The notes under the pieces: model-generated
Told to the model about the DNA's origin: nothing
Database searches by the model: none
Seen by the model: the letters and a program-made list of their open reading frames with translations, nothing else
Assembly: GCA_964406305.1 (NCBI GenBank)
Contig: CAYORF010000001.1
Coordinates: 12,819 to 76,818, forward strand
DNA: 64,000 nucleotides
Direction of reading: 5' to 3'
Origin: an uncultured Anaerolineales bacterium
GTDB lineage: Bacteria > Chloroflexota > Anaerolineae > Anaerolineales > UBA11858
Made by a program: the position numbers and the translations under genes
Shown: positions 9,205-64,000 of the stretch, piece after piece
Layout of the letters: each line of letters opens with the position of its first letter
Numbering within the stretch: the stretch's first letter is position 1

Positions 9205-9337
9205 ATAGAGTGATGGGTTTCTCGTATTATAAACTTGGAAAGGCCTATACCTCGCGTGATTATCAGTCCTGGGAGAGCTGTTTTTCTCCCTTGAGAGCGC
9301 GGTTATTTTTTAGTCTCCTGGTGACGCGGTAGCGAGC

Positions 9338-10354
9338 GTGCAAAACCCACATAATGGTAAAATCACTTCCATGGTTGTCAAGATTACCAATCACCCCGGA
9401 GCTCTTCCCATTCGGGATTTTGATGTGCGAACGGACTTACTTTCAGTTTCTGATCTAGTGGAGCTGTGTTTTGCGGATCGTCTCTCTCCTGACGGGGAAG
9501 CCTTGCTGCGAAAAATGCGCTCCTCAGCTCATAACAAACGTTTTCAGGAATGGGCTTATTTAATGGCAGGCCGAGTATCGATGCCTTTCACAGGGTATGT
9601 CTGGGAAGAAGGGGGAGAGATCATTGGTAATCTCAGTTTAATACCCTATCATGTGAGCGGCAGACAATATTATATGATCGCTAATGTGGCGGTCCATCCA
9701 GATTACCAACGCAAAGGTATCGCCCACTCGCTGGTCAGCCAGGCCCTAAATTTCCTGCTTCCCAAAAGACTGGACGGTATTTGGCTTCAAGTGGATCAAG
9801 GCAATCAGGCAGCGGTGGACCTCTATATACGGCATGGTTTTGTTGAAGTTTCCCGCCGTACCACATGGATGTTAAGACCAACCGATATCCCTCAGGCATT
9901 CCTTGATTGGCGCGTGCCTGGATTCACAGTGGAAGAGCACAGATCTAAACATTGGCCCCTGCAGCGCAGATGGCTGGAGAATAACTATCCCCCTGAAGTG
10001 CGCTGGCATTTGCCTCTCCGTCCAGAATATTTGCGAGCAGGATTAGCAGGCCGGTTTTCTCGCCTGATGCTACTGGACCCCAAGATATCTCAGTGGTCTG
10101 TTATGGCTGAAAATGAATTGATCGGTGTGGTTTCCTGGCAATCTTCCAAGACCCAGGCCGACTGGCTTTGGATCGCCTCTTCTCCAGAAACGGAAGGTGT
10201 CCTGTTAGATGCCTTTTTGCCACACTGGATGAATGGGCCTGGCTTCAAACGATCCCTAAGGTTGAATTTCCCGGCCAGGAAAACCAATCTCAGTCTCGAA
10301 ACCCACTGGTTTAAACCAACCAGAACTTTGATCTGGATGACATACGAACACTAA
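9338..10354 (+). CDS. GNAT family N-acetyltransferase (N-terminal GNAT domain plus C-terminal extension)
   Basis: 338-aa ORF with a GTG start; an alternative ATG is at 9371. The acetyl-CoA motif-A block is VAVHPDYQRKGIAHSLVSQAL. Confidence 0.75.
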   Translation: MQNPHNGKITSMVVKITNHPGALPIRDFDVRTDLLSVSDLVELCFADRLSPDGEALLRKMRSSAHNKRFQEWAYLMAGRVSMPFTGYVWEEGGEIIGNLSLIPYHVSGRQYYMIANVAVHPDYQRKGIAHSLVSQALNFLLPKRLDGIWLQVDQGNQAAVDLYIRHGFVEVSRRTTWMLRPTDIPQAFLDWRVPGFTVEEHRSKHWPLQRRWLENNYPPEVRWHLPLRPEYLRAGLAGRFSRLMLLDPKISQWSVMAENELIGVVSWQSSKTQADWLWIASSPETEGVLLDAFLPHWMNGPGFKRSLRLNFPARKTNLSLETHWFKPTRTLIWMTYEH

Positions 10355-15026: not shown

Positions 15027-16220
15027 ATGGGCCAGAAAAATAGAAGACGTGCATTTTCCCTAACATATATTTTAGTATTCATCTTGGGCGCCTGCAACCT
15101 GCCGGACGAGAGTATTGGGTTGGAAGGTAAACCGGGCGCTTTATATACTGAGGCAGCAATGACTGTCTCGGTCCAACTGACTGCAGTTGGAATCGACCTC
15201 TCGAACACTACCCAGTTATCTGAAACACCAGCGCCAGATGGACCTCAAGGGGCGGATCCAATCTCAACCTTTGAGTTTCCAACTTTCACGCCGGAAGGAG
15301 TCGTGGATGCGACCTCCGAGGTCTGCGATCAAGTGAAGTTTGTCAAAGACGTCACCATTCCGGATGAAATGGATATCGCTCCAGGGGAAAGTTTTACAAA
15401 AACCTGGCGCCTTCAAAATGCCGGCTCCTGCCCCTGGGGAATTGGCTACCTGCTTTATTTTGAAACCGGTGATATCATGGGCGGCCCATCATCCCAGGAC
15501 CTGACTTCTGAGACCATCCATCCAGGTGAAGACCTGGATATTTCTGTTGATCTGGTGGCACCTGAGGAAACCGGAAGCTACCAGGGTTTCTGGAAACTTC
15601 GTAATGTAAGAGGTGAGGGTTTTGGTGTGGGGGAATATTCAAAAGGTTTCTGGGTGAAGATCAATGTGGTGGAGGGGGTTGGAATGATGTTAGATTTTAA
15701 CGTCCGGGCTGATGAAGCTGCTTGGGGTAGTGGATCTGTACCGGTCGATTATGCTGATTTAGGTGGAGATATTCTCAATTTTGATCACCCTGGAGATCCA
15801 GAGGATCCCTATGTAGCGCTGTTGGATCAACAGTTCCTGGAAGGTGGGCGGATCTCAGGGATCCTGCTTGCTGCTTACCCACCACAAGGTGCGGGAAAAT
15901 ATATCATTGGCCGTTTCCCCGGTTATAAAGTTAACGGAGGGGATCTGTTATTCGGCCGAGTTGGCCTTTCAACGAATGCCAACGGTGTCTGCGGAGATGG
16001 GGATGTGAAGTACCGAATCAACCTGATGGTAGGAGAAGATCCAGAAACTATGGTCACTCTCTGGGATTGGAATGAGGTCTGTGATAATAAGATGAAATCT
16101 TTTGAGATAGATCTGGATGATTTTAAAGGGGAGGAGGTGAAGATTTTTCTGGTTGTGATAGCAAATACTGACTCTGTAAAAAACTTCGCTGTTTGGGATT
16201 CGCTCTCGATCCATCGCTAG
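15027..16220 (+). CDS. lipoprotein with NBR1-like Ig domain
   Basis: Lipobox LGAC. The block FVKDVTIPDEMDIAPGESFTKTWRLQNAGSCPW...ISVDLVAPEETGSYQGFWKL is typical of the NBR1-like Ig fold found in many secreted bacterial proteins. Confidence 0.6.
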   Translation: MGQKNRRRAFSLTYILVFILGACNLPDESIGLEGKPGALYTEAAMTVSVQLTAVGIDLSNTTQLSETPAPDGPQGADPISTFEFPTFTPEGVVDATSEVCDQVKFVKDVTIPDEMDIAPGESFTKTWRLQNAGSCPWGIGYLLYFETGDIMGGPSSQDLTSETIHPGEDLDISVDLVAPEETGSYQGFWKLRNVRGEGFGVGEYSKGFWVKINVVEGVGMMLDFNVRADEAAWGSGSVPVDYADLGGDILNFDHPGDPEDPYVALLDQQFLEGGRISGILLAAYPPQGAGKYIIGRFPGYKVNGGDLLFGRVGLSTNANGVCGDGDVKYRINLMVGEDPETMVTLWDWNEVCDNKMKSFEIDLDDFKGEEVKIFLVVIANTDSVKNFAVWDSLSIHR

Positions 16221-25266: not shown

Positions 25267-26717
25267 CCCGGCTGGAAACCGTTAATGATCAGGCGTAGGG
25301 GCTCGCCGCCGGTGGTGTCGATCAACCAGATCTCAGGGGGGTCAGAAAGAGCTGCCTGGTTGTAGCGCACATAGGCTAACAACTTCCCGTCCGGGTGCCA
25401 GGCGAAGGAAGTGTGTTGATAATCTATAACTTCTGATAGTTGAGTGTTTTCACCATTAATTATATTCAAAACCCAGAGCTCCCGTCCCGGAGTCCACAGG
25501 GCGGGATCGAGGGATTTGTGACTGTAAGCTAAGGTCAAACCCGAAGGAGCGAAGCTGGGGTTGAGGTCCTCAGGGTAGCTGCCGCGTGAAAGATCCAGGG
25601 TGGTGTTTTCCTTTAAGTCATAGAGTTGAAGATGGCGAGGTGCCAGGGTGTCGCTCAGGAACAGGATTTCAGAGCAGACGAAATAACGCCCATCAGGAGA
25701 CCAGCTGCCATCCCCACCGGTTTCGTTGGGGAGTAATTGAGTCTCACCGGTAACGGGATTCCAAAACTGGTAGCCTTTCCCGGTTTGGTTGTAATAGGCA
25801 AGCCACCCTGAAGGGGACCAGAGTGGTTTTTCAAGGTACTGATTTTTTTCTCCCAGATCAATTTGGGTCATGACTTCGATGTCCAAAACCTTGACTGTGG
25901 GACGCTTTCCAGGTTCTATGGGAATGTATTCATAGGCCAACAAATACCCGTCAGGAGATATCCTGGGAGTGGTGCATAGCCCATCAGAGCAGGATGTAAT
26001 TTGTCCAGAAGCCCCGGTTAATCGATCAAGGACCATGATCCTGCCCGTGCCGTCCTCACTGGTGGAGCTGTAATAGATCTGTTCACCGTTAGCCGAAATG
26101 GAATAATCCAGGACCCCGTTGAGTTCTTCTGTCAACGTCTGACTCTCCCCGCTAACAGGATTGACCAGATAGAGATTACTTGTATTATCTGCTGGCCACA
26201 GATATGTCAGCAGAATTGGGCTGACAGTCATTTCAATACTGAATTTACCCAGAAGGGGCAGCCTGATCCGTGACCGGGACCAACTCTTTAGCTGGAGGGT
26301 GATGATCTCTCCTGCTGGCCAGGATTTATTGGGTGTGAATGTGAGCTGATTGTTATCTTCGCTCCAGTTATATTCGCCTGGTTGAGATGGCTCCAAGTCT
26401 AACCGGCTTTCTACGCTATCACCATACATGGCTCTGGTGAACCGTATCACCAGAGGTTGCCGGCCGTGCAGTTCTCCTTCTGATGGCTCAATTCCTTCAA
26501 TCCGGGGCGCAAGCTGCCAGCCGATCAATACCAATATCAGCAGAACAACAAAGCCCAGGACCAGCCCGATTTTCCATCTCATGGCCCAATTATAATCGAC
26601 ATCATTCAGCAGTTGTTTTTCTCTAACTGGGTTCGGAAAGGTTGATTTTACAGCTTTGAGAGGAAAGATTATCGGGGATTGGTTCATGTTAGAATGATAG
26701 CTATGAAACGCTGGCAA
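25254..26717 (-). CDS. membrane-anchored TolB-like/PD40 beta-propeller protein with N-terminal Ig-like domain
   Basis: It has one TM segment followed by repeated blocks of the S-P-D-G..LAY / W-S-P-(D/S)-G type (ISPDGYLLAY, WSPSGWLAY, WSPDGRYF, HPDGKLLAY). Confidence 0.7.
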   Translation of the reverse strand: MPAFHSYHSNMNQSPIIFPLKAVKSTFPNPVREKQLLNDVDYNWAMRWKIGLVLGFVVLLILVLIGWQLAPRIEGIEPSEGELHGRQPLVIRFTRAMYGDSVESRLDLEPSQPGEYNWSEDNNQLTFTPNKSWPAGEIITLQLKSWSRSRIRLPLLGKFSIEMTVSPILLTYLWPADNTSNLYLVNPVSGESQTLTEELNGVLDYSISANGEQIYYSSTSEDGTGRIMVLDRLTGASGQITSCSDGLCTTPRISPDGYLLAYEYIPIEPGKRPTVKVLDIEVMTQIDLGEKNQYLEKPLWSPSGWLAYYNQTGKGYQFWNPVTGETQLLPNETGGDGSWSPDGRYFVCSEILFLSDTLAPRHLQLYDLKENTTLDLSRGSYPEDLNPSFAPSGLTLAYSHKSLDPALWTPGRELWVLNIINGENTQLSEVIDYQHTSFAWHPDGKLLAYVRYNQAALSDPPEIWLIDTTGGEPLRLIINGFQPGWVP

Positions 26718-27728
26718 TTCTGGGTTGGACTGGCTTTAAGCGCTGTCTTCCTCTACTTCGCGCTGCGCGGTCTGGAGATCAACGAGATTTGGGAGCCGTT
26801 AAAATCCGCTCAGTATTGGTGGCTTTTACCCGGAGTAGCCGTATATTTTATCGGTGTCTGGGTCAGAGCCTGGCGTTGGCACTATCTGCTCCGTCCCCTT
26901 AAACCTGTTCCTACAAAGAAGATGTTCCCTATTGTTGCCATTGGATATATGGGCAATAATATCTACCCCGCCCGGGCAGGTGAAGTCCTGAGAGCAGTGG
27001 TTCTGAAACGCAAAGAAGAGATTCCAATTTCAGCATCCCTGGCAACCGTGATCGTAGAGCGTATTTTTGACGGCGTGGTCATGCTGGGTTTTGTATTCCT
27101 TAACCTGTCCGAACTGGCCACTTTAACCGGAACATCCGGTTTTATTGGCAATATCAAGACACTGGCTTTATGGGGGTCAGCCGCATTTTTAGGGGCATTG
27201 GCGGTATTCATGCTGGCAGCCATGTTCCCCGTCCAGGCTGAAAAAGTGATTGCCAAGTTGATTGAGATCTTCCTACCGGAACGATTCCGAGAAAAAGTAC
27301 AGGAGATTGTCTTAAAATTCTTACACGGCCTGGAATCGTTGCGCTCACCTCGAGATGCTGTGATGGTTCTGCTGACTTCGGTGGTGATCTGGCTCCTGGA
27401 AACCGGAAAATATTGGTTTGTTATGCAAGCTTTTGATTTCCAGGTCAGCTTTTTTGCTTTGATGTTAATGAACGGTATTGTCAACCTGGCTACTACCATT
27501 CCCTCCGCCCCAGGTTATGTGGGCACCTTTGATGCCCCAGGTATTGCAGTCCTCTCGGCATATGGTGTAGATCAAGGAATGGCAGCTGGCTATACTTTAG
27601 TTTTACATGCTGCTTTGTGGTTCCCGATCACTTTGCTGGGCGCATATTATATGGTGAGGGAAGGCATCCGTTGGAAGGGGGGTGAAGTGGTTGACCAGCA
27701 GGTTGCAAGCGAAGAAGTAGCTGATTAA
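26703..27728 (+). CDS. flippase-like membrane protein (UPF0104 / lysylphosphatidylglycerol-synthase TM-region family)
   Basis: Polytopic, with the family block GNNIYPARAGEVLRAVVLKR. The start was moved to the ATG at 26703. Confidence 0.7.
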   Translation: MKRWQFWVGLALSAVFLYFALRGLEINEIWEPLKSAQYWWLLPGVAVYFIGVWVRAWRWHYLLRPLKPVPTKKMFPIVAIGYMGNNIYPARAGEVLRAVVLKRKEEIPISASLATVIVERIFDGVVMLGFVFLNLSELATLTGTSGFIGNIKTLALWGSAAFLGALAVFMLAAMFPVQAEKVIAKLIEIFLPERFREKVQEIVLKFLHGLESLRSPRDAVMVLLTSVVIWLLETGKYWFVMQAFDFQVSFFALMLMNGIVNLATTIPSAPGYVGTFDAPGIAVLSAYGVDQGMAAGYTLVLHAALWFPITLLGAYYMVREGIRWKGGEVVDQQVASEEVAD

Positions 27729-49339: not shown

Positions 49340-49354
49340 CTTTAAAAGAGAAAG

Positions 49355-49425
<71 letters not shown>

Positions 49426-49497
49426 CTGATATAAAGAAGCTGATGGTTTCCGGCTGATAAATTTCAGCCATCAGCCACCAGCCGGTATTCTGGAAAG

Positions 49498-49569
<72 letters not shown>

Positions 49570-49576
49570 TTGAAAG

Positions 49577-49649
49577 TGCCGAGAGCCAGACTCGAACTGG
49601 CGACCCTTTGATTTTCAGTCAAATGCTCTACCAACTGAGCTATCTCGGC
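49577..49649 (-). tRNA. tRNA-Phe (GAA)
   Basis: Manual cloverleaf: GCCGAGA TA GCTC AGTTGGTA GAGC A TTTGA CTGAAAA TCAAA GGGTC GCCAG TTCGAGT CTGGC TCTCGGC A. Confidence 0.9.
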
Positions 49650-54460: not shown

Positions 54461-56566
54461 TTATTCTATCCGGACCCGCACGTCCACAGCAGCAGCGCCT
54501 TTCCCGGCTGGGAAAATCCGCAGAGGATTGATCTCGATCTCAGCGAACTGAGGAAAGTCATTCGCAAATTGGGCTAGACGGATCATCACATCCCGCACGG
54601 CCTTTATATCGGCAGGTGGGATATTCCTGTATCCTTCCAGTTTGCGGCCGGCCCAAGTTTTCTGAAGCATATAATCTATTTCTATTTTAGTTATGGGTGC
54701 TAGGCCGAAGGATAGATCTTTTAACCCTTCAACTTCAGTACCCCCCGAACCAAACATCATGACCGGGCCAAATTGTGGATCCTGAACTACCCCCAGGATC
54801 ACTTCTTGACCCAGGGGAACCATTTCCTGGACATAGACGCCTGTAATCTTGGCATCAGGTAGGGCGGCCTTCGCCTGGCTGGTGATCGTTTGATAACCGC
54901 CCCTGACAGATTTTTCATCAGCTAGATTTAACAGCACCCCGCCCACATCCGTTTTATGGCTGATATCCGGGGAGGCGACCTTAAGAACGACCGGCATACC
55001 AATTTCTGCGGCCAAGGCAGCGGCTTCTTCCTCATCCTTCGCCAGAGTCATTTTAGCTGTGGGAATCCCGTAGGCCTCCATTATTTGGGCGATCACTGGT
55101 CCGCTAAGATGGTTGTTTTGAATATTTTCCTTGATCAATTCCCTAACCAGATCTGTCTGAATATCCTGGCGAATGACAGGCTCCGCAGAAGCATATTCGA
55201 GCAAGCCAACTCTTTTTACTAGTGCAGCCAGTGCAGCTGCTGCACGCTCTGGAAAACGGTATTCCGGTATTCGGGCAGCCCGCAGATGTTCCACTGCTTC
55301 CTGGATCAATCGATCTCCCATGACAGAGATAACGACTGGTTTTTTGGCCTGGTGAATGATTGGGATCATAGCTTTGGCAACTGCGCCTGCTGTATACATG
55401 GGTGGTGTGGGAAAGATCACCATCACACTGTCCGTTCCAGGATCAGCCAGCAGAACCCTCAAGCAATCCGCAAATTGGATTGGCCCAGCAGCCGCAAGCA
55501 TATCCACTGGGTTATGCAAACTGGCAGCTGAAGGCAAGATCTTCTGGAGATCAGAGATAGTATCCGGGCTGAAACTTGCCATTTTCAATCCCCTGGATTC
55601 AAGGGCATCTGCAGCGGTCACACCGGGACCGCCTGCATTCGTAAGTACAGCCACGCGGTTGCCTTCTGGCAAGGGACACCAGGCTAGAGCTCTGGCCTGG
55701 TCGAACAATTCCTCGCTGGTTTCTGCCCGTAGGACTCCCGCCCGACGGAAGACAGCGTTATAGGCGCTTTCCTCGCCGGATAAAGCCCCGGTATGGGAGG
55801 CAGCTGCTCTTTGTCCGGCTTCGAACCTCCCAACTTTGAGGGCAATGATCGGCGTGTTCGGAACAACAGCACGGGCCTCATGAACAAAGCGCCGACCAGA
55901 TTTGATCCCTTCCAGATAGAGTGCGATCACATTTGTGTGCCCATCAGCTGCTGTAGGAACAAGCAAGTCGGTTTCTGTGACATCGGCCTGGTTTCCGAGG
56001 CTGATCAATCTGGAAATACCGTACCCCTGACCGCGGGCCCAATCAATGGCAGCTGCGCAGATCGCGCCAGAATGGGACAGAAATGCCACATCACCGGGAT
56101 TCGGACCTGGCGGAGGAAGAAAGGTAGTGTCCAACGGCAAGTGAGTATCCAGAAGACCAATACAGTTCGGGCCGAGCAGGCGGATGCCTTCTTCTTTCGC
56201 AACCTTCAGCATTTCCTGTTCCAGCGCTAAGCCTTCAGGCCCGATCTCTCTGAAACCACCAGCGCCTATAATGGCTGCTTTAATACCGCGCTTTCCACAT
56301 TCCCGCAGAGTGGGAATAACGAATTTTGAAGGAATAAGAACTGCAGCCAGATCTACTGGATCAGGTACATCCAAAACAGACTCATAAATGGTTTTGCCAA
56401 GCAGTGTGCCGCCTTTTAAGTTCACAAAATGAATGGCGCCTTTATAACCGCTTCTGTTGAGATTAGTTGCCAGGAGGTAGCCCAGCTTGGTCGGATCCTG
56501 GGAGGCGCCAATTACTGCAACACCTTTGGGATCAAAAAAGGGGGTCAGGGATGTTTTATCTGTCAT
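54461..56566 (-). CDS. ADP-forming acetyl-CoA synthetase / acyl-CoA synthetase (fused alpha-beta; CoA-binding plus ATP-grasp)
   Basis: 701 aa. It has the N-terminal CoA-binding block PKGVAVIGAS, the succinyl-CoA-synthetase-like blocks GPNCIG and SHSGA, and a C-terminal ATP-grasp. Confidence 0.85.
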   Translation of the reverse strand: MTDKTSLTPFFDPKGVAVIGASQDPTKLGYLLATNLNRSGYKGAIHFVNLKGGTLLGKTIYESVLDVPDPVDLAAVLIPSKFVIPTLRECGKRGIKAAIIGAGGFREIGPEGLALEQEMLKVAKEEGIRLLGPNCIGLLDTHLPLDTTFLPPPGPNPGDVAFLSHSGAICAAAIDWARGQGYGISRLISLGNQADVTETDLLVPTAADGHTNVIALYLEGIKSGRRFVHEARAVVPNTPIIALKVGRFEAGQRAAASHTGALSGEESAYNAVFRRAGVLRAETSEELFDQARALAWCPLPEGNRVAVLTNAGGPGVTAADALESRGLKMASFSPDTISDLQKILPSAASLHNPVDMLAAAGPIQFADCLRVLLADPGTDSVMVIFPTPPMYTAGAVAKAMIPIIHQAKKPVVISVMGDRLIQEAVEHLRAARIPEYRFPERAAAALAALVKRVGLLEYASAEPVIRQDIQTDLVRELIKENIQNNHLSGPVIAQIMEAYGIPTAKMTLAKDEEEAAALAAEIGMPVVLKVASPDISHKTDVGGVLLNLADEKSVRGGYQTITSQAKAALPDAKITGVYVQEMVPLGQEVILGVVQDPQFGPVMMFGSGGTEVEGLKDLSFGLAPITKIEIDYMLQKTWAGRKLEGYRNIPPADIKAVRDVMIRLAQFANDFPQFAEIEINPLRIFPAGKGAAAVDVRVRIE

Positions 56567-56583
56567 AGTACAGATTGTAACCT

Positions 56584-56614
56584 AAAGAAATCCCCCGGAA
56601 TTACCCGGGGGATT
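56584..56614 (-). terminator. rho-independent terminator after the HD-GYP gene
   Basis: AATCCCCCGG - 6-nt loop - CCGGGGGATT, followed on the minus strand by TTCTTT. Confidence 0.65.
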
Positions 56615-56651: not shown

Positions 56652-59108
56652 TTATCCAGTAATAGTCTTGCAGAATACATCAACAATCATGGGATCAAAC
56701 TGGGTCCCACTGGCTCGGCGTAGTTCGGCGATGGCTTCTTCATGGGTATGAGCTTCACTGTATACCCGCTCATCCCTGATGGCTACATATGCATCCACAA
56801 CAGCCAGGATCCGGGAACCGAGTGGTATATCGTTTCCTTCTAACCCGTATGGATAGCCAGTGCCGTCAAATTTCTCATGATGGGCCCGGATGATGGGTGA
56901 AACAGGGGCCAGATATTTAATCGGTTCGACTATTTGAGCCCCTGTAAAAGGATGCTCCTTCATGATGATCCATTCCTTTTTTGTGAGCGATCCTTTCTTA
57001 TTCAGAATCTGATCTGGGACACCAATTTTTCCGATGTCATGTAAAATACCAGCCCAATGCAGGATTTCAATATCCCGGGTAGAAAGTCCCATTGCTAATC
57101 CAATTCGGGACGCCATATCAGCCATTCTCTGGCTGTGGTCGCCAGTGTAACTGTCCCGGGCATCCATGGCGTTAGCGAGAGAAATGACAGTTTGTAGGAA
57201 ATTTTCTTCCAATTTATTATGCAACATTGCCCGTTGAATGGAACTTGAGGCATAGTCTGCTATAGCATTAATCAATCTTAGCTGGGAAGGTGTAAATGGA
57301 GCTGTTTCTCTGCTGTGGAATTCTCCAAGGATGAGGAGACCAATTTTGCCATCGGCGCTTATTAAAGGGCAGATGCATAAAGTCCTTGCAAAATTTATGA
57401 ATATGGCTTGTTTTTCTTCAGCTTGCCAGTCTGGATCGTTAATATCTATTACAACAATTTTTTCATCATCAAGAACCATATCATAGTAATGTTCAGCGAC
57501 TATTGGCTCAACATTTCCATATCGAAGTGGATCCATAAGATTTTTGATTGGATATATAGACTGACAATAATAATCTCCGTTATCATCCCTTATTAATATC
57601 CTGGCATATGTAATTTGAACACTTTCAACAGAGTGTTTAGTAATAATGTTTAATATGGTTTCCAAATCATCTGTATCAACAAGCTGATTGGATAGGTTGT
57701 AAAGAGTGTCGATTTCTTTCCGTCTACTCTGTTCTGCAGTATATAACCGTGCGGTTTCGATTGCAGCAGCCGTTTGATTAGCGACTGTTGTGAGGGTTAT
57801 TATTTCCTCAGAACTATATGGTTGTTCAGAGCGTTTGGGTCCCAGAATGAATATTCCAACTAATTGGGATTGCACTTTGATAGGAATGAATAATTTTGCC
57901 CTCATATCTTTCAAGAGTTGTCTTTCACTTTTCCAAAGAGATTGAAATTGCGGAAGAACTTCCATATCGTGATGGCTGATAGGATGATTTCGGTTGAAAA
58001 ACCAAAGAACTAGGGGGTGTCCCTGCCTGAATGAGTGGTTTCCAATATCATCTAATCCGATCTGGGTTGTCAGTTGGAACACTCCCGTATCTTCATCTCT
58101 GAAGAAAAACGCGGCGTCTGGAAGGTGCAAAGTAGTCGCGACTTCCGATAAAATCATGTTTGTGATTTTATATAGATCCAATGTAGAAGTAGTTTGGCTG
58201 CTCAATTTTTGAAGCATGACCTGGGAATCATATTTCTCTCTGAAGAACAGGCGGTCAATGATTGCCTGAGCCCGAACTCTAAAAGGTTCGGCTAGCAAAG
58301 CAGTAAGAACCGCCACAACCAGTGAGGTTAAGAAGATCTCTGCTTTGGAAAATAGGCCGAAGATATTAATAAACAAGGTGATGATCAAGAAGTAGGCTGT
58401 ACCTATTATTACAGTAGGGATAGAGTAAAGCATACCCTGGCGAATAACAATTCGGATATCCAGCAGCTGGTACCTTAAGATTGCATAAATAAGCAAAAGG
58501 GCACCTATGCTATTGGCCACGATATCAAAAGGATATCCCCCGAGGACAGGTATAAAATTGATAATGGAACCAATAATCATCAACAGAACGCCAAGGATTA
58601 TGTACAACAAGCGGTTTCTTTGAACTGGATCCCTTGATTTTTGGTGGAAGCGAACGAGGGCGATTAGACTTATTATGATTAAGATATATCCAGGTCCGGC
58701 GACTATTGCCGTGGTTTCAGCGAAATCATAGACAACAACCCCGTCAATTACTGAGACCGACTCAGTTAAAAGGTTCGTAAATATACTGAGTCCTATCATA
58801 ATCACGCTAAAGATGAAGACCGCGGTCCCCCGCCAATTTTCAACTTTGATTGTGGCTCTGGTGAACATGTAAATGCTCAGCATGGCACTAAGACCGGCGC
58901 CGGACATCATTCGGAACCAGAATACAGCCCTGGTTTGATCTGTATACAACAAGAATGCACAAAACGACCAGAGGGCCATAGAAAACAGGTACCACCGGAA
59001 CGCTTTGTGTATTTTGGTCTGGGGTTTCGAAACGGTAACTACTATATACAGTCCTGTATATAGTAGGAACGCCAAGCCTGAAATTACTGTAACTATAGCA
59101 AGAACCAT
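56652..59108 (-). CDS. multi-TM sensor protein with two GAF domains and a C-terminal HD-GYP domain (c-di-GMP phosphodiesterase type)
   Basis: 818 aa. It has about 7 N-terminal TM segments and two GAF-like regions. The HD-GYP blocks are GILHDIGKIGVPDQIL and HHEKFDGTGYPYGL. Confidence 0.85.
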   Translation of the reverse strand: MVLAIVTVISGLAFLLYTGLYIVVTVSKPQTKIHKAFRWYLFSMALWSFCAFLLYTDQTRAVFWFRMMSGAGLSAMLSIYMFTRATIKVENWRGTAVFIFSVIMIGLSIFTNLLTESVSVIDGVVVYDFAETTAIVAGPGYILIIISLIALVRFHQKSRDPVQRNRLLYIILGVLLMIIGSIINFIPVLGGYPFDIVANSIGALLLIYAILRYQLLDIRIVIRQGMLYSIPTVIIGTAYFLIITLFINIFGLFSKAEIFLTSLVVAVLTALLAEPFRVRAQAIIDRLFFREKYDSQVMLQKLSSQTTSTLDLYKITNMILSEVATTLHLPDAAFFFRDEDTGVFQLTTQIGLDDIGNHSFRQGHPLVLWFFNRNHPISHHDMEVLPQFQSLWKSERQLLKDMRAKLFIPIKVQSQLVGIFILGPKRSEQPYSSEEIITLTTVANQTAAAIETARLYTAEQSRRKEIDTLYNLSNQLVDTDDLETILNIITKHSVESVQITYARILIRDDNGDYYCQSIYPIKNLMDPLRYGNVEPIVAEHYYDMVLDDEKIVVIDINDPDWQAEEKQAIFINFARTLCICPLISADGKIGLLILGEFHSRETAPFTPSQLRLINAIADYASSSIQRAMLHNKLEENFLQTVISLANAMDARDSYTGDHSQRMADMASRIGLAMGLSTRDIEILHWAGILHDIGKIGVPDQILNKKGSLTKKEWIIMKEHPFTGAQIVEPIKYLAPVSPIIRAHHEKFDGTGYPYGLEGNDIPLGSRILAVVDAYVAIRDERVYSEAHTHEEAIAELRRASGTQFDPMIVDVFCKTITG

Positions 59109-59109
59109 A

Positions 59110-60720
59110 CTACCCTTTTACTTTTTTATCTCCCAGTAGCTTTTTCATCTGATCCTGTGTGGGTTTCATATGGGGCGGCTTGGTATGTGCGAGATCAGCA
59201 CCCTGACTTTGCTGGTAATCCATATACATTCCAAAAGCTCCCGGATTAAGCATCGATATTGTAAGCGCCGTGTAACCAAGCATCTTTTCTAGATCGTCGT
59301 AATCTGAATTTATTTCCCTTAAGGCAGTGCTGATTTGCTTTTCAACTTTCTTTGTGTCCAGATCAGTTACAGATTTTAGCTCAATGAAAAGTCGTAAATA
59401 TGTTTTATTATCTTTGATCTCTTTTCGCGCAACCCATTCGTAGTAATCAAGGTCGGTTTTTTCCAGAGCTAGCCAAATATCTTTTTCTGTGATCAAGGAA
59501 AATCCTGCAAGATTTATGATATCGCTATCTCTGGAATAGAACTGAACCTGCGGGAGGTCAATATCCAACTCATCATCTCTCAGTGAGATTACCTCAAAAA
59601 GATCGCCAATCCGGTAGCGTGTAAAGATTCCCCCATGGAAGTTTGTGAATACCAGCTCATAAATCCCTGGCTCTAATTCGTTATAAAGTACTGTTTTTGG
59701 CTGATAATCCGGATCTTCTTTGTTCTTCTTGTGTTCCTCATGAGGAATAAATTCCAAAAAGTCGTTTTCAGGGAAAAATGTCATTCCCTTGTAATTCCAG
59801 GCTTGCATACACAAAGATCCACCTTCAGTGCAAGCGTACCCTTCCAGTGGTTTTTTACCCCAATAGTATTCAATTTGCTTTTTATAAATGGAAGCATCTA
59901 CTCCGCCGGTCATAATACCTTTCAGTTTCCAGATATCTTTCGGTAGAACTTTTCCGCCTTTTAATTTTGCGGTAAAGTAACCTTTCATCAATCTCCAAAG
60001 TACGTCTGGTCGGAGCATTTTTGCCGTGATTTTTACTGAACCGGAACCTTTTTCAAATTGTTCACCAATTCCAACCAATATGCTCGCAAGTCCGTAGAAA
60101 AAATCCAAGCCTTCAACCATGGCTAACTTAAATCCAGATTGAATTCGGTCTCGAAAACCCATTTGATCACCCTCTTCGAGTGAAGGAAGGAATCTCAGTT
60201 TCATTTGTTCATTTGCGCTGTTAGTAATTTCTCCAGATACGTAGGGTGTTGGAGCTGTTGCCAATAGAACGGTATCGTAAGGCTCTAATAGAACCTCGCC
60301 CTTTTTTGTACAAGAGGCTAAGATCATGGAACCGGTAACAGACTCGCCAAGACGGTCATACATCTTTTTGCTATATGGAGCCCATTTCCATCTAAAAGAA
60401 CCACTCCTTCCAGAAGTGTGCGCCCAGGCAACCGGTTCGCGAGGAAGAACATCAGTTCTCTTTTCATCAAGATGCTCGTGATAATCTTGATATGTCGTAA
60501 GGGGCACATTCTTGCGGAACTCTTCTACAGTTTTTGGAATTTTATCACCCATCAACATACGCCCCATCATGCAGCTTCCTAATAATTTGATCTGTTCCAT
60601 GAGCAGGCGTTCCTGAATTTCCATGAATTCATCTATACTCAGATCAAGGAAACCCAAATACTTCGTCCAGATTTCCTTCTGTCGGCCTTGTTCAAGCATG
60701 GTATTCAGGTCAGTCATCAT
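59110..60720 (-). CDS. GH3-family (acyl-acid amido synthetase-like) adenylate-forming enzyme
   Basis: 536 aa with three adenylation-type motifs in GH3 order: HTSGRSGSFRWKW (P-loop-like), GYACTEGG and YRIGDLFEV. Confidence 0.65.
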   Translation of the reverse strand: MMTDLNTMLEQGRQKEIWTKYLGFLDLSIDEFMEIQERLLMEQIKLLGSCMMGRMLMGDKIPKTVEEFRKNVPLTTYQDYHEHLDEKRTDVLPREPVAWAHTSGRSGSFRWKWAPYSKKMYDRLGESVTGSMILASCTKKGEVLLEPYDTVLLATAPTPYVSGEITNSANEQMKLRFLPSLEEGDQMGFRDRIQSGFKLAMVEGLDFFYGLASILVGIGEQFEKGSGSVKITAKMLRPDVLWRLMKGYFTAKLKGGKVLPKDIWKLKGIMTGGVDASIYKKQIEYYWGKKPLEGYACTEGGSLCMQAWNYKGMTFFPENDFLEFIPHEEHKKNKEDPDYQPKTVLYNELEPGIYELVFTNFHGGIFTRYRIGDLFEVISLRDDELDIDLPQVQFYSRDSDIINLAGFSLITEKDIWLALEKTDLDYYEWVARKEIKDNKTYLRLFIELKSVTDLDTKKVEKQISTALREINSDYDDLEKMLGYTALTISMLNPGAFGMYMDYQQSQGADLAHTKPPHMKPTQDQMKKLLGDKKVKG

Positions 60721-61445
60721 TCCTCCAGACTATAAGTTGCTTGGATTGTCAAAGGTTCCGGGATCCAACGGTATTTTGAGGAAAGTTTGGTTATTTTGAT
60801 TTCCTCAAATCCCGCTTTTATCAATTCTTCATTCCAACCTTCAGGTGTTCTTGTGTTGCTTATTGCGACTGATTCTGCCCAGGCACGAGCAGGGTTTTTT
60901 TGTAATAGAAAGTATATAAAAATTATCACTCTGGTGATGCCGCGAATAACAGGCAATTCCCAGAAAGGAGACATGCCTACGTCAATAAATGATAATAAAC
61001 CACCGGGCTTTAGAACCCGTCTTTTTTCGGACAGCATAAGGGAAATATTCATATGATGAGAAGCCAAACCTGAAAGCACTACATCGAATGACTGCCCGGA
61101 AAAGGGAAGAGCCATCGCATCACCACAAATCAAACTGATAAACGCTTGTTTTTCTTCCTTGTGTATTTTTTCTTTGCCTTTCCTGAGCATTTCTTCGGTG
61201 ATATCCAGACCAGCGATGTGAACCCCCGAGATATTTCCGGCAGCAATTTTTCTGGGGATTATAGAAGTTCCGGTAGCGATATCAAGGATTTTTTGGCCTT
61301 CCTTGATAGGAGTTCTTATTACTAGTTCATCTAAAAACCTCTGGTAACTCCAACCCCAGAATTTGTTTAATTCCCAATCAATCGCATCTTCATAATGGGA
61401 AGAAAGTTCATTAAATGTTTCTTTGATGGCCTGTTTTTCTCTCAT
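60717..61445 (-). CDS. class I SAM-dependent methyltransferase (UbiE/COQ5-like)
   Basis: Motif I is ILDIATGTSIIP, plus the blocks GDAMALPF and LKPGGLL. The stop overlaps the GH3 start (ATGA). Confidence 0.8.
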   Translation of the reverse strand: MREKQAIKETFNELSSHYEDAIDWELNKFWGWSYQRFLDELVIRTPIKEGQKILDIATGTSIIPRKIAAGNISGVHIAGLDITEEMLRKGKEKIHKEEKQAFISLICGDAMALPFSGQSFDVVLSGLASHHMNISLMLSEKRRVLKPGGLLSFIDVGMSPFWELPVIRGITRVIIFIYFLLQKNPARAWAESVAISNTRTPEGWNEELIKAGFEEIKITKLSSKYRWIPEPLTIQATYSLEE

Positions 61446-61556
61446 ATTTCCTTGAATTTTTTTCCCAACTAAAAGACTCGATTATTAGCTATGATGTAAT
61501 TAATAAACAAAGCTGATTATACTCTTCTTTATTAATGTGTTTTTCTCAAAAGATTT

Positions 61557-62324
61557 CTAGATATAAAATCTATCTTTATCTACTTCCACCCTCAGAATCC
61601 GCAGCTCTTCAGCGCTAGGGGGTGGGTTTTCTGTGATCTCGCGAGCCAGTAAAAGTTCAAATCCAGTGTTCTCCAGGACCTGTTCAACGCTTATCCCGGG
61701 CTGAACCGATAATAGTTTCATGCGCTTCTTGTCCTCGTCATAGCCAAGGATTCCCAGGGTAGTTACAACTCTATAAGGACCGGTTCCGGGAGGCAGCCCG
61801 GCTTTTTCCCTGGCTCCCGGGCCGGAAAGATAACCTGGGGTGGTAATGAAATCCACTTTTTCCACGAAGCGCAGCTTATCATGTTTCATGATCGCAATTG
61901 TCCGCCAGCAATGTGAGCCAACATCATTGCCTCCACCGCTTCCAGGTAGGCGCACCTTCGGGTGATCGTGGTCGCCGATCACTGTTGAGTTCAGGTTGCC
62001 ATAGGGATCGATCTGGGCCCCGCCTAAGAAACCGTAATCCACAAAACCTCTCTGGGCCGTTTCTACAACATCCAGAATTCCAGAAGCAGCCAGGGCTTTA
62101 TGAAAGGTCCTCCGTTCGCCAACAGCGAGCGGAAGTTCTTCCAGGATGGCGCCTGTCCCTCCAAACTCAAAAATACTTATTAAGTTAGGAGCATGCATTT
62201 TTTGTGCCAAAGCCCCTGCCAACATGGGAATACCTGTGCCGATGAAGACCGTGGAATTGTCCTCCATTAGTCTGGAGGCCGAGCAAATCATTAACTCGTT
62301 GGGGTTGTAATTGGGTTCAGTCAT
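61557..62324 (-). CDS. CoA-transferase subunit B (glutaconate CoA-transferase GctB-like)
   Basis: 255 aa with the blocks FIGTGIP, GGAQID and GSGGGND. Its start overlaps the stop codon of the subunit A gene (ATGA, 62321-62324). Confidence 0.85.
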   Translation of the reverse strand: MTEPNYNPNELMICSASRLMEDNSTVFIGTGIPMLAGALAQKMHAPNLISIFEFGGTGAILEELPLAVGERRTFHKALAASGILDVVETAQRGFVDYGFLGGAQIDPYGNLNSTVIGDHDHPKVRLPGSGGGNDVGSHCWRTIAIMKHDKLRFVEKVDFITTPGYLSGPGAREKAGLPPGTGPYRVVTTLGILGYDEDKKRMKLLSVQPGISVEQVLENTGFELLLAREITENPPPSAEELRILRVEVDKDRFYI

Positions 62325-63298
62325 TTGGAAACCTCCGGGACCATATCCTTAATTTCCTGCAGTCGCTCACTGCCGATCAAATCCAGATAGGCCTGGTGGT
62401 CTTTCAGATCATAGATGTATTTTTGAAGATAGGCCTGGGTTGTTTCTGGATCTTTGGAGGCCTCCACCCAGGATTTGATATGGGGTTCGTCTCTCTCATA
62501 AACATAGCACATCTCCCCTGGATGCGATCCAAAGGGAGCTTCAATTACAACATCTACCAAATAGTAGGGAATGATGGTCTGGTCGGGACGTTGGCGAATC
62601 TCTTCCGTTGGAATGATTTCTTCAGTACTGATCAGTAACCGCTTGGAAGCCCGGGCCAGCTCAGAGGCAAAACCGCTGATCCCGTCGATTTGGCAGTTGC
62701 CGAATTTGTCTGCCCGATGTACGTGTATTAATCCCACATCCAGGATCAAAGCCGGCAGCAAGGCGATCGGCTCGCCGGTAAATGGGTCTTCTACCACCTT
62801 GGCTGCACTGTATTTCAGAGTATCTGTGCCGAGCATGGATCTGGTCGGTATAAAGGGCACTCCCATAGCAGCGGCTTTAAAACGCCAGGCAATGGCGGCA
62901 TTGCTCCATTCTACACAGTGTTCTACCCTTCCGCTTTCCACTTCCCTTCGCAGACAATTGGAAAGTCCGTAAACTTCCATACCGATATAAGTATGGTCAA
63001 GTGCTTTGATCAATCCGGCACCCAATAACAGGTCCAGCTCATAAACTCCCTGGCCAGCCACCCGGAGTTCCTTTTTCCCCTGGCGAATGACTTCGTTGAC
63101 CAATGACTGCGGGCAGCGGACTGTGCCATACAGCTCTGTGCCGATATAATCGCCGTCATTGATGAATTTGGCTACCGCCTCCTTTTCAGTCATCCGTTTG
63201 TCTATCAGACCACGGGGTTTAGATCGATTGTGCTCCCGGAAGTCATTCATATCGGGGGGCTGCAGCATAACCCCTTTGCCAGATGAGATCACCTTCAT
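62321..63298 (-). CDS. CoA-transferase subunit A (glutaconate CoA-transferase GctA-like)
   Basis: 325 aa. The C-terminal blocks IHVHRADKFGN, PFGSHPG and YIYDLKDHQAYLDLIG are collinear with Acidaminococcus GctA as I recall it. Confidence 0.85.
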   Translation of the reverse strand: MKVISSGKGVMLQPPDMNDFREHNRSKPRGLIDKRMTEKEAVAKFINDGDYIGTELYGTVRCPQSLVNEVIRQGKKELRVAGQGVYELDLLLGAGLIKALDHTYIGMEVYGLSNCLRREVESGRVEHCVEWSNAAIAWRFKAAAMGVPFIPTRSMLGTDTLKYSAAKVVEDPFTGEPIALLPALILDVGLIHVHRADKFGNCQIDGISGFASELARASKRLLISTEEIIPTEEIRQRPDQTIIPYYLVDVVIEAPFGSHPGEMCYVYERDEPHIKSWVEASKDPETTQAYLQKYIYDLKDHQAYLDLIGSERLQEIKDMVPEVSK

Positions 63299-63417: not shown

Positions 63418-64000
63418 TCAGCGATGTAAGTTAGGTGCAGCCAGGAACGACAAACCGTTTTCGGTTAATGCCCAGGCTGTTTTATTGAGGGCGATGAATT
63501 TATCCATGAAATTCCCGGTCATATGATCAAAATCGCCGGCTTTCTTGATCTCTTCTTTGTCACGGAAATAATCCAGGATATCCGAAGGGTGTTCGCGGGT
63601 CTTGTCGATTTCAGGATCCCCGCCCTCATGTTTGGCGGAGATATTGGCCACATGGTCAGCGATCTCGATTAATTCATCCCGGCGGTTATAAGGTTGGCGG
63701 ACAATACTCTTATAAGTCTCTGTGATGTGGTGTTCAAAACGGATAATATCCTCAAACCCCAGATCTTTCCGGAACTGTGCTGTGATTTCCATCGTTTGAT
63801 TATCTATTGAGTTGCTCCAGTTGAATCCAATTAACGGGGTGGTGCCGTCGTCACGAGTGAATAATTTGGCGCCCAGCAGGGTCCATAATGCGGCATAGGG
63901 ATTATCGTTCCCCATATATACAGAAATCTTAAATTCGTTATTCACACCCAGGCGATGCAGCATATATCCCAGCAGCACAGTGCCGGGATTGATATTCAAT
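63418..64000 (-). CDS. conserved hypothetical protein, 5' end outside the window
   Basis: The minus-strand frame is open to the window edge. No motif was recognised. It lies immediately upstream of the CoA-transferase genes. Confidence 0.5.
   Translation of the reverse strand, partial: LNINPGTVLLGYMLHRLGVNNEFKISVYMGNDNPYAALWTLLGAKLFTRDDGTTPLIGFNWSNSIDNQTMEITAQFRKDLGFEDIIRFEHHITETYKSIVRQPYNRRDELIEIADHVANISAKHEGGDPEIDKTREHPSDILDYFRDKEEIKKAGDFDHMTGNFMDKFIALNKTAWALTENGLSFLAAPNLHR

Follow-up and report, generated by a model that had tools for sequence, protein, structure and literature searches.

The locus described here raises the question of why a bacterial relative of the plant GH3 enzymes should be encoded end to end with a methyltransferase and a membrane sensor. 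It lies on the minus strand of the analysed DNA, a stretch of 64,000 nucleotides from an uncultured Anaerolineales bacterium (the window). A literature search found no description of a GH3/methyltransferase-sensor pairing, and the trio is probably an undescribed cassette for making and sensing a lipid-like molecule. The three-gene unit, as read from the ORF translations, and its boundaries comprise the following features, listed in the direction of transcription.

61446 to 61556, minus strand: AT-rich spacer of 111 nt, 5' of the methyltransferase gene (sequence reading)
60717 to 61445, minus strand: class-I SAM-dependent methyltransferase (MT), 242 aa (Pfam, NCBIfam and PDB matches)
59110 to 60720, minus strand: GH3-family adenylate-forming ligase, putative acyl-acid amido synthetase, 536 aa (Pfam GH3 domains)
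56652 to 59108, minus strand: membrane sensor, 818 aa, with a nine-helix HisKA_7TM region, two GAF domains and HD-GYP (Pfam, AF2)
58239 to 59108, minus strand: sensor residues 1 to 290, polytopic membrane input of HisKA_7TM and two further helices (Pfam, AF2)
57756 to 58181, minus strand: first GAF, sensor residues 310 to 451 (Pfam GAF_2, GAF and GAF_3)
57219 to 57716, minus strand: second GAF, sensor residues about 465 to 630, limits approximate (two Pfam GAF stretches)
56688 to 57176, minus strand: HD-GYP (HD_5), sensor residues 645 to 807 (HD_5, 136.5 bits)
56589 to 56614, minus strand: terminator-like hairpin with an 11 bp stem, 7 GC pairs and a T-rich tail (sequence scan)

The initial annotation had described three genes fused at their boundaries, and the sequence bears this out, with an exact match of the ORFs and both the ATGA overlap and the 1-nt gap in place. 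The MT/GH3 junction reads GGAGGAATGATG, in which the TGA of the methyltransferase overlaps the ATG of the ligase (ATGA, 60717 to 60720), and a GGAGGA Shine-Dalgarno sequence stands close upstream of that ATG. The true GH3 start may be one codon later, because a second in-frame ATG directly follows the first and many homologues are 535 aa long; the overlap with the methyltransferase stop would remain. The GH3/sensor junction reads GGG TAG t ATG GTT, with the stop at 59110 to 59112, one spacer base, and the ATG at 59106 to 59108. Across loci, the distance between GH3 stop and sensor start is mostly +1, 0, -1 or -4 nt. Downstream, an intrinsic-terminator-like hairpin begins 38 nt past the sensor stop codon; it had been placed at 56584 to 56614, and its presence stands with the limits corrected as listed above. 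Upstream, the spacer holds a perfect TATAAT at 61516 to 61521, a candidate promoter for the three genes. A canonical -35 is absent at 16 to 18 nt from it in this spacer, where the promoter scan lists no promoter. A look for RNA runs found none that contains the locus.

The 536-aa protein contains the GH3 (N), GH3_M and GH3_C domains in order (Pfam PF03321, PF23571 and PF23572), at 38.9, 41.3 and 31.5 bits relative to a gathering cut-off of 23.6, and the same N, M and C domains are also precomputed for its homologues. A profile built from 17 homologues matched solely plant GH3 structures in the PDB, led by GH3.12 (8.5e-12) and followed by GH3-1, JAR1 and GH3.15. The motifs AHTSGRSGSF, GYACTEGG and YRIGD, quoted in the initial annotation, are all in the translation. 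The motif set checked consisted of the P-loop (S/T)SG(x)(S/T)G, Y-x-x-(S/T)-E, YRxGD and the C-terminal catalytic lysine. In the alignment with GH3.12, T102-S103-G104-R-S-G, Y295-A-C-T298-E299, Y369-R370-I-G-D373 and K514 fall on these motifs, and T102-S103-G104 of the P-loop, E299, Y369-R370-x-x-D373 and K514 are conserved in at least 95% of 81 sequences. Judged from its sequence, the assignment to the GH3 family holds, with its catalytic residues intact, and the HMM search places the protein there rather than in a housekeeping adenylating family. Its putative activity is to use ATP in joining an acyl acid to an amino acid through an amide. Its only NCBIfam match was the OlsH equivalog model (NF052613), at 33.3 bits with a cut-off of 620 and aligned over residues 256 to 519 only, so that it cannot be called OlsH itself.

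The structural comparison is less specific. The AF2 model of the ligase (pLDDT 77.6) had AtGH3.15 (6e1q) as its top Foldseek match (E 8.6e-20, TMq 0.61), with the PaaK-family ligases BT_0428 and PaaK1 nearly level (E 1e-19 to 1e-17) and higher in target-normalised TM-score, and a fold search of this kind cannot separate GH3 enzymes from PaaK-type acyl-CoA ligases. The trio is also flanked by genes of CoA metabolism, namely CoA-transferase A/B (61557 to 63298) and an ADP-forming acyl-CoA synthetase (54461 to 56566), and both observations would suit a PaaK-like acyl-CoA ligase that serves ordinary acid metabolism together with these neighbours. We consider this very improbable, given the three GH3-specific domains above their cut-offs, the lack of any reported AMP-binding or PaaK Pfam model for the protein, and a sequence profile that selects plant GH3 structures alone. 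Furthermore, the flanking CoA-transferase and acyl-CoA synthetase genes are kept only in relatives with a GH3 identity of at least 59% and are gone from every locus below about that value, where methyltransferase and sensor persist, and in the window the terminator and the 111-nt spacer set the trio apart.

The methyltransferase matched the Pfam models Ubie_methyltran (67.4 bits) and Methyltransf_11 (66.5 bits). It resembles UbiE/COQ5 enzymes and falls under every NCBIfam equivalog cut-off; an assignment as the quinone C-methyltransferase UbiE/MenG was rejected, with MenG_MenH_UbiE the best model at 69 bits relative to a cut-off of 158 (range in NCBIfam 158 to 420). Its closest sequence matches in the PDB were LahSB, a glucose O-methyltransferase and phosphoethanolamine N-methyltransferases (E about 1e-11 to 1e-9), which differ in acceptor atom, and the predicted function supported by these matches is general class-I SAM methyltransferase membership only. 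LahSB, the closest solved relative, acts on a peptide C-terminal carboxylate. The protein also has a conserved hydrophobic segment around residues 160 to 182 and weakly resembles PmtA, a phospholipid N-methyltransferase (42 bits).

A class-I methyltransferase adjoins GH3 in 68 of 75 loci. In five of the 75, the neighbour is a PEMT-like integral-membrane methyltransferase unrelated to the class-I enzyme, and four of these five have no class-I gene, so that in some lineages one enzyme has displaced the other non-orthologously. Each type is also found fused to the N terminus of GH3, the class-I enzyme in P0116/P0117 and the PEMT-like enzyme, whose domain is membrane-embedded, in P0249, P0273 and P0275. 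At least one methyltransferase of either type stands beside GH3 in 72 of the 75 loci. These counts, together with the fusion of both types to GH3, indicate that the methyltransferase is selected as part of the cassette. Methylation is not obligatory, since three loci (L076, L077 and L081) have no methyltransferase of either kind within their flanks.

The sensor had been described as having about seven transmembrane segments, two GAF domains and an HD-GYP domain. Two GAF domains and HD_5 were found, and the membrane part is predicted to have nine helices rather than seven, together with a beta hairpin at residues 115 to 129 (AF2, pLDDT 71, and hydropathy). HisKA_7TM (PF16927) covers residues 15 to 218 with 47.8 bits (gathering cut-off 28.6). 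Residues W47, N184, P193, D195, N199, L215, D217, R223 and Y239 of the input are conserved across 69 sensors of all output classes. A Foldseek search of the sensor input against the PDB returned just generic 7TM bundles (E of 3.8e-3 or higher) and no informative match, and in the literature HisKA_7TM is listed as a sensor domain with no ligand named. The first GAF is found in all sensor classes beside GH3, and the second is missing from the roughly 650-aa one-GAF sensors of some lineages (e.g. L026).

The HDIGK and HHEKFDGTGYPYGL motifs of the output domain were present in the translation, as the initial annotation had quoted them. Across 17 homologues, neither the metal ligands (H, HD, H, HH and D) nor the GYP motif varies, and these residues align one for one with those of PmGH (4mcw, E 1.9e-33) and V-cGAP3 (5z7c, E 7.2e-40). 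The catalytic set is thus complete, and the domain is predicted to be a cyclic-dinucleotide phosphodiesterase. Its nucleotide may be either c-di-GMP or, possibly, 3'3'-cGAMP, because the best PDB match is a 3'3'-cGAMP phosphodiesterase.

Of the three refuting conditions named beforehand, none applied: the 536-aa protein did not fall into a housekeeping adenylating family, the HD-GYP domain has its catalytic residues, and gene order was conserved in every relative with enough flanking sequence. Counting genomes and contigs together, about 90 others carry the trio, with differing signalling outputs. Loci were taken as informative if 900 nt or more of sequence followed GH3, and in all 76 such species-level loci a HisKA_7TM+GAF sensor is part of the GH3 cluster. 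It lies directly downstream of GH3 on the same strand in 75 of the 76, counting L080, which has a methyltransferase gene in between; in the remaining locus (L078) the order is sensor-MT-GH3. Over Anaerolineae and Dehalococcoidia, GH3 identity drops from 92% to 40%, and the genes around the trio are exchanged although the trio itself is retained. Chance would not account for this arrangement, because all 76 loci keep it while their flanks change. The GH3-sensor pair also extends to remoter family members, whose profile scores go down to about 290 bits (L084, L085, L089, L091/L092, L093 and L094). Synteny inherited without any functional link would be helped by the fact that one phylum supplies most loci. 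We give that explanation practically no weight, as it is already contradicted by the turnover of the flanks, by a linkage that survives the rearranged orders in L078 and L080, by the fusion of GH3 to two unrelated methyltransferases, by the non-orthologous displacement of the methyltransferase, and by the overlapping start and stop codons.

HD-GYP is the sensor output in most loci, and one-GAF HD-GYP sensors also occur. The others carry HisKA/HATPase, HisKA_2, HisKA_3, a PAS-HK, a hybrid kinase with REC, GGDEF, or GGDEF with HD-GYP, and in L091/L092 a 7TM kinase is followed by a separate REC-GAF-HD-GYP regulator. The constant partner of GH3 is the 7TM-GAF input module of the sensor and not c-di-GMP turnover; the output varies and the input is constant, which places the role of the ligase on the input side of the sensor. 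The proposal that a signal is wired directly to c-di-GMP turnover was thus upheld as to the sensor linkage, which is conserved, and not as to the output, which is swapped for kinases or GGDEF and whose nucleotide may be cGAMP. In the sister clade of P0249, the partner of the PEMT-GH3 fusion is a B12-binding radical SAM enzyme and no sensor is encoded within 8 kb, which suggests that the ligase module can work without one.

What the ligase and methyltransferase contribute to the sensor can be proposed only tentatively. Under the mechanism that we put forward, the GH3-like enzyme would adenylate a carboxylic acid with ATP, probably a fatty or otherwise hydrophobic one, and couple it, as an amide, to an amine that is probably an amino acid. 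The methyltransferase would methylate the substrate or the product of this reaction. The resulting methylated, lipid-like amide conjugate would be an amphiphile in or at the cytoplasmic membrane, where the nine-helix HisKA_7TM and GAF input module, made from the same mRNA straight after the ligase, could read it. Here, the ligand level would set the rate at which HD-GYP hydrolyses a cyclic dinucleotide (c-di-GMP, possibly 3'3'-cGAMP); elsewhere, the same input module would drive histidine kinases, hybrid kinases or diguanylate cyclases. We hold this mechanism, by which the trio would be a selected unit that both makes and senses its molecule, to be quite plausible, at somewhat short of an even chance. 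The sequences establish the gene anatomy, the family memberships, the intact catalytic motifs and a conserved triad whose output varies; we infer the product chemistry, the lipid-like nature of the product, and the role of the product, not its precursor, as ligand. Three indirect observations, namely the PEMT-like membrane methyltransferase, the hydrophobic segment of the class-I enzyme and the fatty acid-ornithine precedent of OlsH, point to a hydrophobic, membrane-resident, lipid-like molecule. In place of the small acyl-acid signal envisaged in the initial annotation, these signs would favour a lipid-like molecule. If the mechanism is true, cyclic-dinucleotide hydrolysis by HD-GYP would be set by the cassette's own lipid-like product.

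Genomic linkage would look the same if the sensor read the substrate instead of the product, and it fits equally well with signal removal or adaptation. The 7TM-GAF module would then sense a free carboxylic acid, exogenous or metabolic (e.g. a fatty acid), and GH3 and the methyltransferase would conjugate and methylate it so that the signal is ended or reset. Plants inactivate hormones such as auxin in this way, through conjugation by GH3 enzymes of the IAA type, and in Xanthomonas the DSF signal is turned over by RpfB. An enzyme co-translated with its receptor would suit a feedback loop, and the order in L091/L092, 7TM kinase and then REC-GAF-HD-GYP regulator, follows RpfC/RpfG logic. However, the membrane methyltransferase-GH3 fusion and the OlsH/OlsG precedent suggest synthesis more than breakdown, and no conserved uptake or degradation genes were seen in the cluster among the loci inspected, so that we regard signal removal as rather unlikely. 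So tight a translational coupling is explained by a stoichiometric complex at least as well as by a synthase and its receptor, and near-stoichiometric co-translation would also suit enzymes acting on the sensor itself. In that case, GH3 (carboxyl to amide) and the methyltransferase (carboxyl to methyl ester) would modify sensor carboxylates in a CheR/CheB-type adaptation. Both enzyme types are able to act on carboxyl groups, LahSB is the closest solved methyltransferase relative, and the wider membrane methyltransferase group of the PEMT-like domain includes the protein-carboxyl methyltransferase ICMT. No GH3 enzyme is known to modify proteins, the data give no sign of a modified residue, and the P0249 clade has ligase and methyltransferase with no sensor within 8 kb; such modification is hardly to be expected. 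If true, it would be CheR/CheB-type adaptation for non-chemotaxis sensors and the first protein-directed GH3.

The other biosynthetic reading is that an OlsH/OlsG-like pair makes a (methylated) N-acyl amino acid membrane lipid, with the sensor as an attached regulator that follows the state of the membrane or the environment in general and does not act as a receptor for the lipid. OlsH, OlsG and OlsI form one operon in Singulisphaera (PMC12493201), the OlsH model is the sole NCBIfam match of the GH3 protein, the methyltransferase has its weak PmtA similarity, and the P0249 clade lacks a nearby sensor. On the other hand, the OlsH match is far below its cut-off (33 bits vs 620), and no OlsI-like alpha/beta-hydrolase O-acyltransferase was found in the cluster here or in the inspected loci, which leaves at most a single-chain, lyso-type product. 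It would also be surprising if a chemically unlinked regulator kept its place beside the pair in 76 of 76 loci, often with an overlap, even as its output domain is swapped. We therefore judge the aminolipid reading to be distinctly unlikely.

The initial annotation took bacterial GH3 members to be uncharacterised, which is outdated, as OlsH was characterised in 2025 as a bacterial GH3-like enzyme making lyso-ornithine lipid, a fatty acid-ornithine amide, and requires its P-loop serine for activity (PMC12493201). In Singulisphaera acidiphila, it shares an operon with the methyltransferase OlsG and with OlsI (PMC12493201, PMC12971839). As here, a GH3-like ATP-dependent ligase and a SAM-dependent methyltransferase occur in one operon; unlike here, that operon includes an OlsI-type O-acyltransferase, whereas the third gene of our trio encodes a 7TM-GAF sensor. 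No alpha/beta-hydrolase O-acyltransferase of the OlsI type is among the window neighbours of the GH3/MT pair (CoA-transferase, sensor and acyl-CoA synthetase) or in the gene tables of the loci inspected, and the Ols papers report no 7TM-GAF sensor (PMC12493201, PMC12971839). Chloroflexota is absent from the text of these published GH3 surveys, with 0 occurrences in one (PMC12493201) and no place in the list of orders of the other (PMC12971839). By analogy only, and from another organism, NAME is the type of molecule expected from an N-acyl-amino-acid ligase with a carboxyl methyltransferase; its synthesis genes are not yet identified in the literature.

Plant GH3 enzymes (JAR1, GH3.5/3.6, PBS3/GH3.12 and GH3.15) share with the ligase the Pfam family, the three-domain order, the adenylation motifs and the C-terminal lysine. 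They rank first among its matches by sequence profile and, with PaaK-family ligases nearly level, by fold. In plants, they produce or inactivate hormones, which a receptor then reads. Identity is only 15 to 19% in structural alignments, and the ligase here is bacterial and tied to a membrane sensor and a methyltransferase. The sensor in turn resembles PrsK (TIGR02916, the XrtA/PEP-CTERM kinase) in its HisKA_7TM and GAF input, with TIGR02916 aligning to residues 15 to 477. It was rejected as a PrsK, at 49.8 bits relative to a cut-off of 300 and with an HD-GYP output, not a histidine kinase, and no PEP-CTERM or exosortase genes were seen near the trio. PmGH (4mcw) and V-cGAP3 (5z7c) have the same full metal ligand set and GYP motif, but are soluble and have other N-terminal domains. 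In its logic, the cassette is like the DSF/Rpf system of Xanthomonas, which consists of the synthase RpfF, the fatty-acyl-CoA ligase RpfB, the membrane sensor kinase RpfC and the HD-GYP regulator RpfG. No RpfF-type crotonase synthase is among the annotated neighbours in the window or the loci inspected, the ligase and sensor-input families differ, and sensor and HD-GYP form one polypeptide in the window. The likeness is functional only and lies in an adenylate-forming enzyme that would act on a signal of fatty-acid type, in a polytopic sensor in the membrane and in output through HD-GYP, and in L091/L092 it extends to the split into a membrane kinase and an HD-GYP regulator.

The three genes of the cassette were found in the window as open reading frames (ORFs) at exactly the coordinates proposed in the initial annotation, and the peptide motifs that it cited were all present in the translations. 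The stop of the class-I SAM methyltransferase (MT) gene and the start of the gene for the GH3-like ligase have an ATGA in common, with GGAGGA located just 5′ of the overlap, and a single base lies between the GH3 stop TAG and the sensor ATG; the overlap and the one-base spacing that had been described were thus both evident in the sequence.

Features of the cassette and its flanks in the window (the three cassette genes are ORF calls)
49354-49649, minus strand: tRNA cluster, Phe-GAA, Gly-GCC and Cys-GCA
54461-56566, minus strand: ADP-forming acyl-CoA synthetase, 701 aa, downstream of the trio
56589-56614: stem-loop with an 11-bp stem (7 GC pairs) and a T-rich tail, 3′ of the sensor gene
56652-59108, minus strand: sensor, 818 aa
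59110-60720, minus strand: GH3-like protein, 536 aa
60717-61445, minus strand: MT, 242 aa
Upstream of the trio: spacer of 111 nt, AT-rich and containing a perfect TATAAT, between the trio and the CoA-transferase genes
61557-63298, minus strand: two CoA-transferase subunit genes with a 4-nt overlap, upstream of the trio

A consensus scan called no canonical promoter in the upstream spacer, where the TATAAT stood alone, and when the whole window was scanned with Rfam for riboswitches and other RNA elements, only the three tRNAs emerged. The surroundings are those of an ordinary Anaerolineales chromosomal region, encoding PriA, a TrpRS/TyrRS-type synthetase, UvrA, RadA and Dus among others. Sequence of the locus was present in metagenome DNA runs from salt lake and marine sediment, and the RNA runs examined contained no sequence words from it. 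The CoA-transferase A/B genes and the ADP-forming acyl-CoA synthetase gene, whose best NCBIfam match was 4-hydroxybutyrate--CoA ligase at 543 bits (cut-off 1300), were rejected as components of the cassette, since their synteny is confined to relatives in which GH3 identity is 59% or higher; they are neighbors by descent. Farther upstream than the CoA-transferase genes, the window edge holds an ORF (63418-63999, minus strand) that is at least 193 aa long and had no Pfam or NCBIfam match. Two other genes of the window were also noted. One encodes a 397-aa protein (15027-16220, plus strand) with a single Pfam match, the Ig-like domain N_BRCA1_IG (86 bits). The other, 30 kb from the cassette (26679-27728, plus strand), has a 39-nt overlap with the end of an opposite-strand PD40-repeat ORF and encodes a protein made solely of LPG_synthase_TM, the membrane domain of lysyl-phosphatidylglycerol synthases, which may be relevant to aminolipid handling.

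The association of ligase and sensor is conserved across relatives. Scanning one genome per GTDB species identified 80 loci encoding GH3 relatives, with identities from 92% down to 40%; by record title, almost all belong to Anaerolineales, Anaerolineaceae, Pelolinea, Chloroflexota or Dehalococcoidia, and several (L025, L053, L056-L059 and L064) bear the genus names Pelolinea or Anaerolinea. Among the 80 loci and that of the homolog P0117 (L001), 76 had at least 900 nt after GH3 and were considered informative. The gene order was conserved, with a HisKA_7TM-GAF sensor within the GH3 cluster at all 76. The sensor was directly downstream of GH3 on the same strand in 75, including L080, where MT lies between the two; in the remaining locus (L078) the sensor comes first, followed by MT and then GH3. 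Gaps between GH3 and the sensor were mostly +1, 0, -1 or -4 nt. The cassette is almost certainly a selected functional unit. Four of the loci (L009, L019, L065 and L069) come from metagenome-assembled genomes labelled Porphyromonadaceae, Nitrosomonadaceae, Clostridia and Spirochaetes, and L009 and L019, which have Anaerolineales-type flanking genes in common, look mis-binned.

When 1.84 billion representatives were searched with a profile, 293 GH3 family representatives were recovered at E <= 1e-30, and ten of these were inspected at contig level. A 7TM-GAF sensor was located beside or near GH3 in six (L084, L085, L091/L092, L093, L094 and L089), and two were on short contigs where signalling genes are truncated by the contig edge. 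A sensor was also present at the P0117 locus, which was taken additionally from an earlier homolog list. No 7TM sensor was found within 8 kb of GH3 in the P0249 clade. In this sister clade the same ligase family has a different partner, a B12-binding radical SAM enzyme. The gene for P0249, a 744-aa fusion of PEMT and GH3, runs into the start of the radical SAM gene (L082 8001-11710; L083). At another distant locus, GH3 is followed by a gene for a 338-aa protein (L086 1991-3007) that contains CxxC and a PP-loop ATPase-like SGGKDS and has no Pfam match, and then by a convergent GAF histidine kinase gene cut by the contig end.

Assignment of the ligase to the GH3 family, as initially annotated, was upheld by several lines of evidence. 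All three GH3 domains scored above their Pfam cut-offs, a profile built from 17 homologs matched solely plant GH3 structures in the PDB, and the P-loop, YxxTE, YRxGD and a C-terminal lysine are kept across 81 family members. The best structural match of the AlphaFold model (pLDDT 77.6) was AtGH3.15, which PaaK-type ligases nearly equal in fold score; fold cannot separate these families, and sequence evidence therefore decides between them. The single NCBIfam match was to the model for OlsH, where the score was 33 bits (cut-off 620), which makes the protein a remote relation of OlsH rather than OlsH itself. The ligase probably performs GH3-type chemistry. Two variants were seen in the wider family. 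A sub-clade (P0273, P0275 and P0262, the last at L084 6001-8178) has TTWEGG in place of the P-loop TSG(R)SG and retains coupling to a 7TM-GAF hybrid kinase, and its member P0262 contains an internal repeat of ~190 residues that may be an assembly artefact. The predicted protein P0330 (558 aa) combines a Peptidase_C14 domain of the caspase type with two of the GH3 domains, the central and the C-terminal one.

The MT is a class-I SAM enzyme that falls under all equivalog cut-offs; a hydrophobic stretch of its sequence, roughly residues 160-182, is conserved. Its nearest solved relatives by PDB sequence match are a mixture of O-, N- and C-methyltransferases with similar weak scores. A class-I MT adjoins GH3 in 68 of the 75 loci with enough upstream sequence, and in P0116/P0117 it is fused to the ligase. 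Beside GH3, four loci without it (L065, L069, L075 and L079) carry an integral-membrane methyltransferase of the PEMT-like type, which contains an RHPG motif; both types are present in L070. The PEMT-like domain is also an N-terminal fusion partner of GH3 in P0249, P0273 and P0275, and L089 has a divergent version of it as a separate gene. Only L076, L077 and L081, among the 75 assessed, had no MT of any type within their flanks. The methyltransferase is also under selection. Two unrelated folds have been recruited to one ligase, each both as neighbor and as fusion, which argues that methylation takes place on the same molecule as ligation, and the membrane-embedded variant argues that this molecule is located at the membrane. 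Just upstream of GH3 in L017, L046 and L066 (~9250-10000), the MT frame is in two or three pieces, which may be pseudogenes or assembly indel errors.

The sensor consists of a HisKA_7TM region followed by two GAF domains and an HD-GYP domain. In its AlphaFold model the membrane part comprises the Pfam HisKA_7TM and two further helices, nine in all, and residues 115-129 form a hairpin. HisKA_7TM is widely distributed as a membrane sensor domain, occurring in many archaeal kinases as well as in the PrsK protein of PEP-CTERM systems; the literature searched lists it as a sensor domain and names no ligand for it. Foldseek of the 7TM module against the PDB returned only generic 7TM bundles (E >= 3.8e-3), namely class-C GPCR transmembrane domains and adiponectin receptors, too unspecific to serve as evidence. 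In the HD-GYP domain, the metal ligands and the GYP motif show no variation and match their counterparts in alignments with PmGH and the cGAMP-specific V-cGAP3.

Output domains on the GH3-adjacent 7TM-GAF module were diverse. They included HD-GYP with one or two GAF domains, kinases of the HisKA/HATPase, HisKA_2 and HisKA_3 types, PAS-containing kinases, receiver-bearing hybrid kinases, GGDEF, and GGDEF plus HD-GYP. In L091 (3168-8498) and L092, GH3 is followed by a HisKA_7TM histidine kinase, whose gene overlaps that of the next protein, a REC-GAF-HD-GYP response regulator; what is a single polypeptide in the window is here divided between two components. Output type tracks the GH3 tree, and ligase and sensor have therefore been co-inherited while outputs were swapped at deep nodes. 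Since one input module carries such varied outputs, the ligase is tied to that module and not to c-di-GMP as such. The initial annotation was sound in its observations and in part of its interpretation: the conserved trio, the GH3 assignment and the HD-GYP domain stand, while wiring specifically to c-di-GMP turnover does not, the 7TM-GAF input being the constant partner of the ligase.

We propose tentatively, from sequence and gene context, that the cassette makes and senses an amphiphilic molecule. GH3 would adenylate a hydrophobic carboxylic acid and then amidate it with an amine, and the MT would methylate the substrate or product of GH3. The 7TM-GAF module would read the resulting amphiphilic product and switch the HD-GYP phosphodiesterase. 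That the product is methylated and lipid-like is slightly more likely than not; that the product itself is the sensor ligand is plausible at a lower level of confidence.

In the chief rival, the sensor would read the free acid, with GH3 and MT serving to remove it; we consider this rather unlikely. An aminolipid pathway in which the sensor is not the receptor for the lipid is less probable again. Covalent modification of the receptor by the enzymes is very unlikely. A role as a PaaK-like CoA ligase, suggested by fold score and opposed by the sequence evidence, is just as improbable, and chance synteny, with a sensor at every informative locus, is scarcely credible.

Under the make-and-sense proposal, GH3 chemistry, which is best known from the control of plant hormones, would extend to signal transduction in bacteria, whose GH3 enzymes have until now been tied only to ornithine-lipid synthesis. 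The cassette would also point to a signalling molecule in Anaerolineae and Dehalococcoidia. Members of these groups are abundant, frequently grow as filaments and are for the most part uncultured, and their cell-to-cell or membrane signalling has received little attention. Should the product prove to be a methylated N-acyl amino acid, the cassette would be a candidate biosynthetic route for this compound class, whose biosynthetic genes are still unknown in Roseovarius. A ligase and MT locked to one HisKA_7TM branch provide a concrete route to finding its ligand.

The three-part cassette is real and strongly conserved, is undescribed in the literature searched, where no description of a GH3-sensor pairing was found, and is built from components of known families. 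The nearest precedent for its GH3 and MT pair is OlsH/OlsG of Singulisphaera. OlsH is a characterized bacterial GH3 that joins a fatty acid to ornithine in an ATP-dependent manner, and its gene shares an operon with those of OlsG, an N-methyltransferase, and OlsI, an O-acyltransferase (PMC12493201); OlsG has been called related to phospholipid N-methyltransferases in a review (PMC12971839). In contrast to the Ols operon, the cassette fails the OlsH equivalog test, lacks OlsI and has a sensor as its third gene. The DSF/Rpf system is alike in logic, but has no defining component in common with the cassette, and a likeness in logic also extends to the GH3-hormone-receptor circuits of plants.
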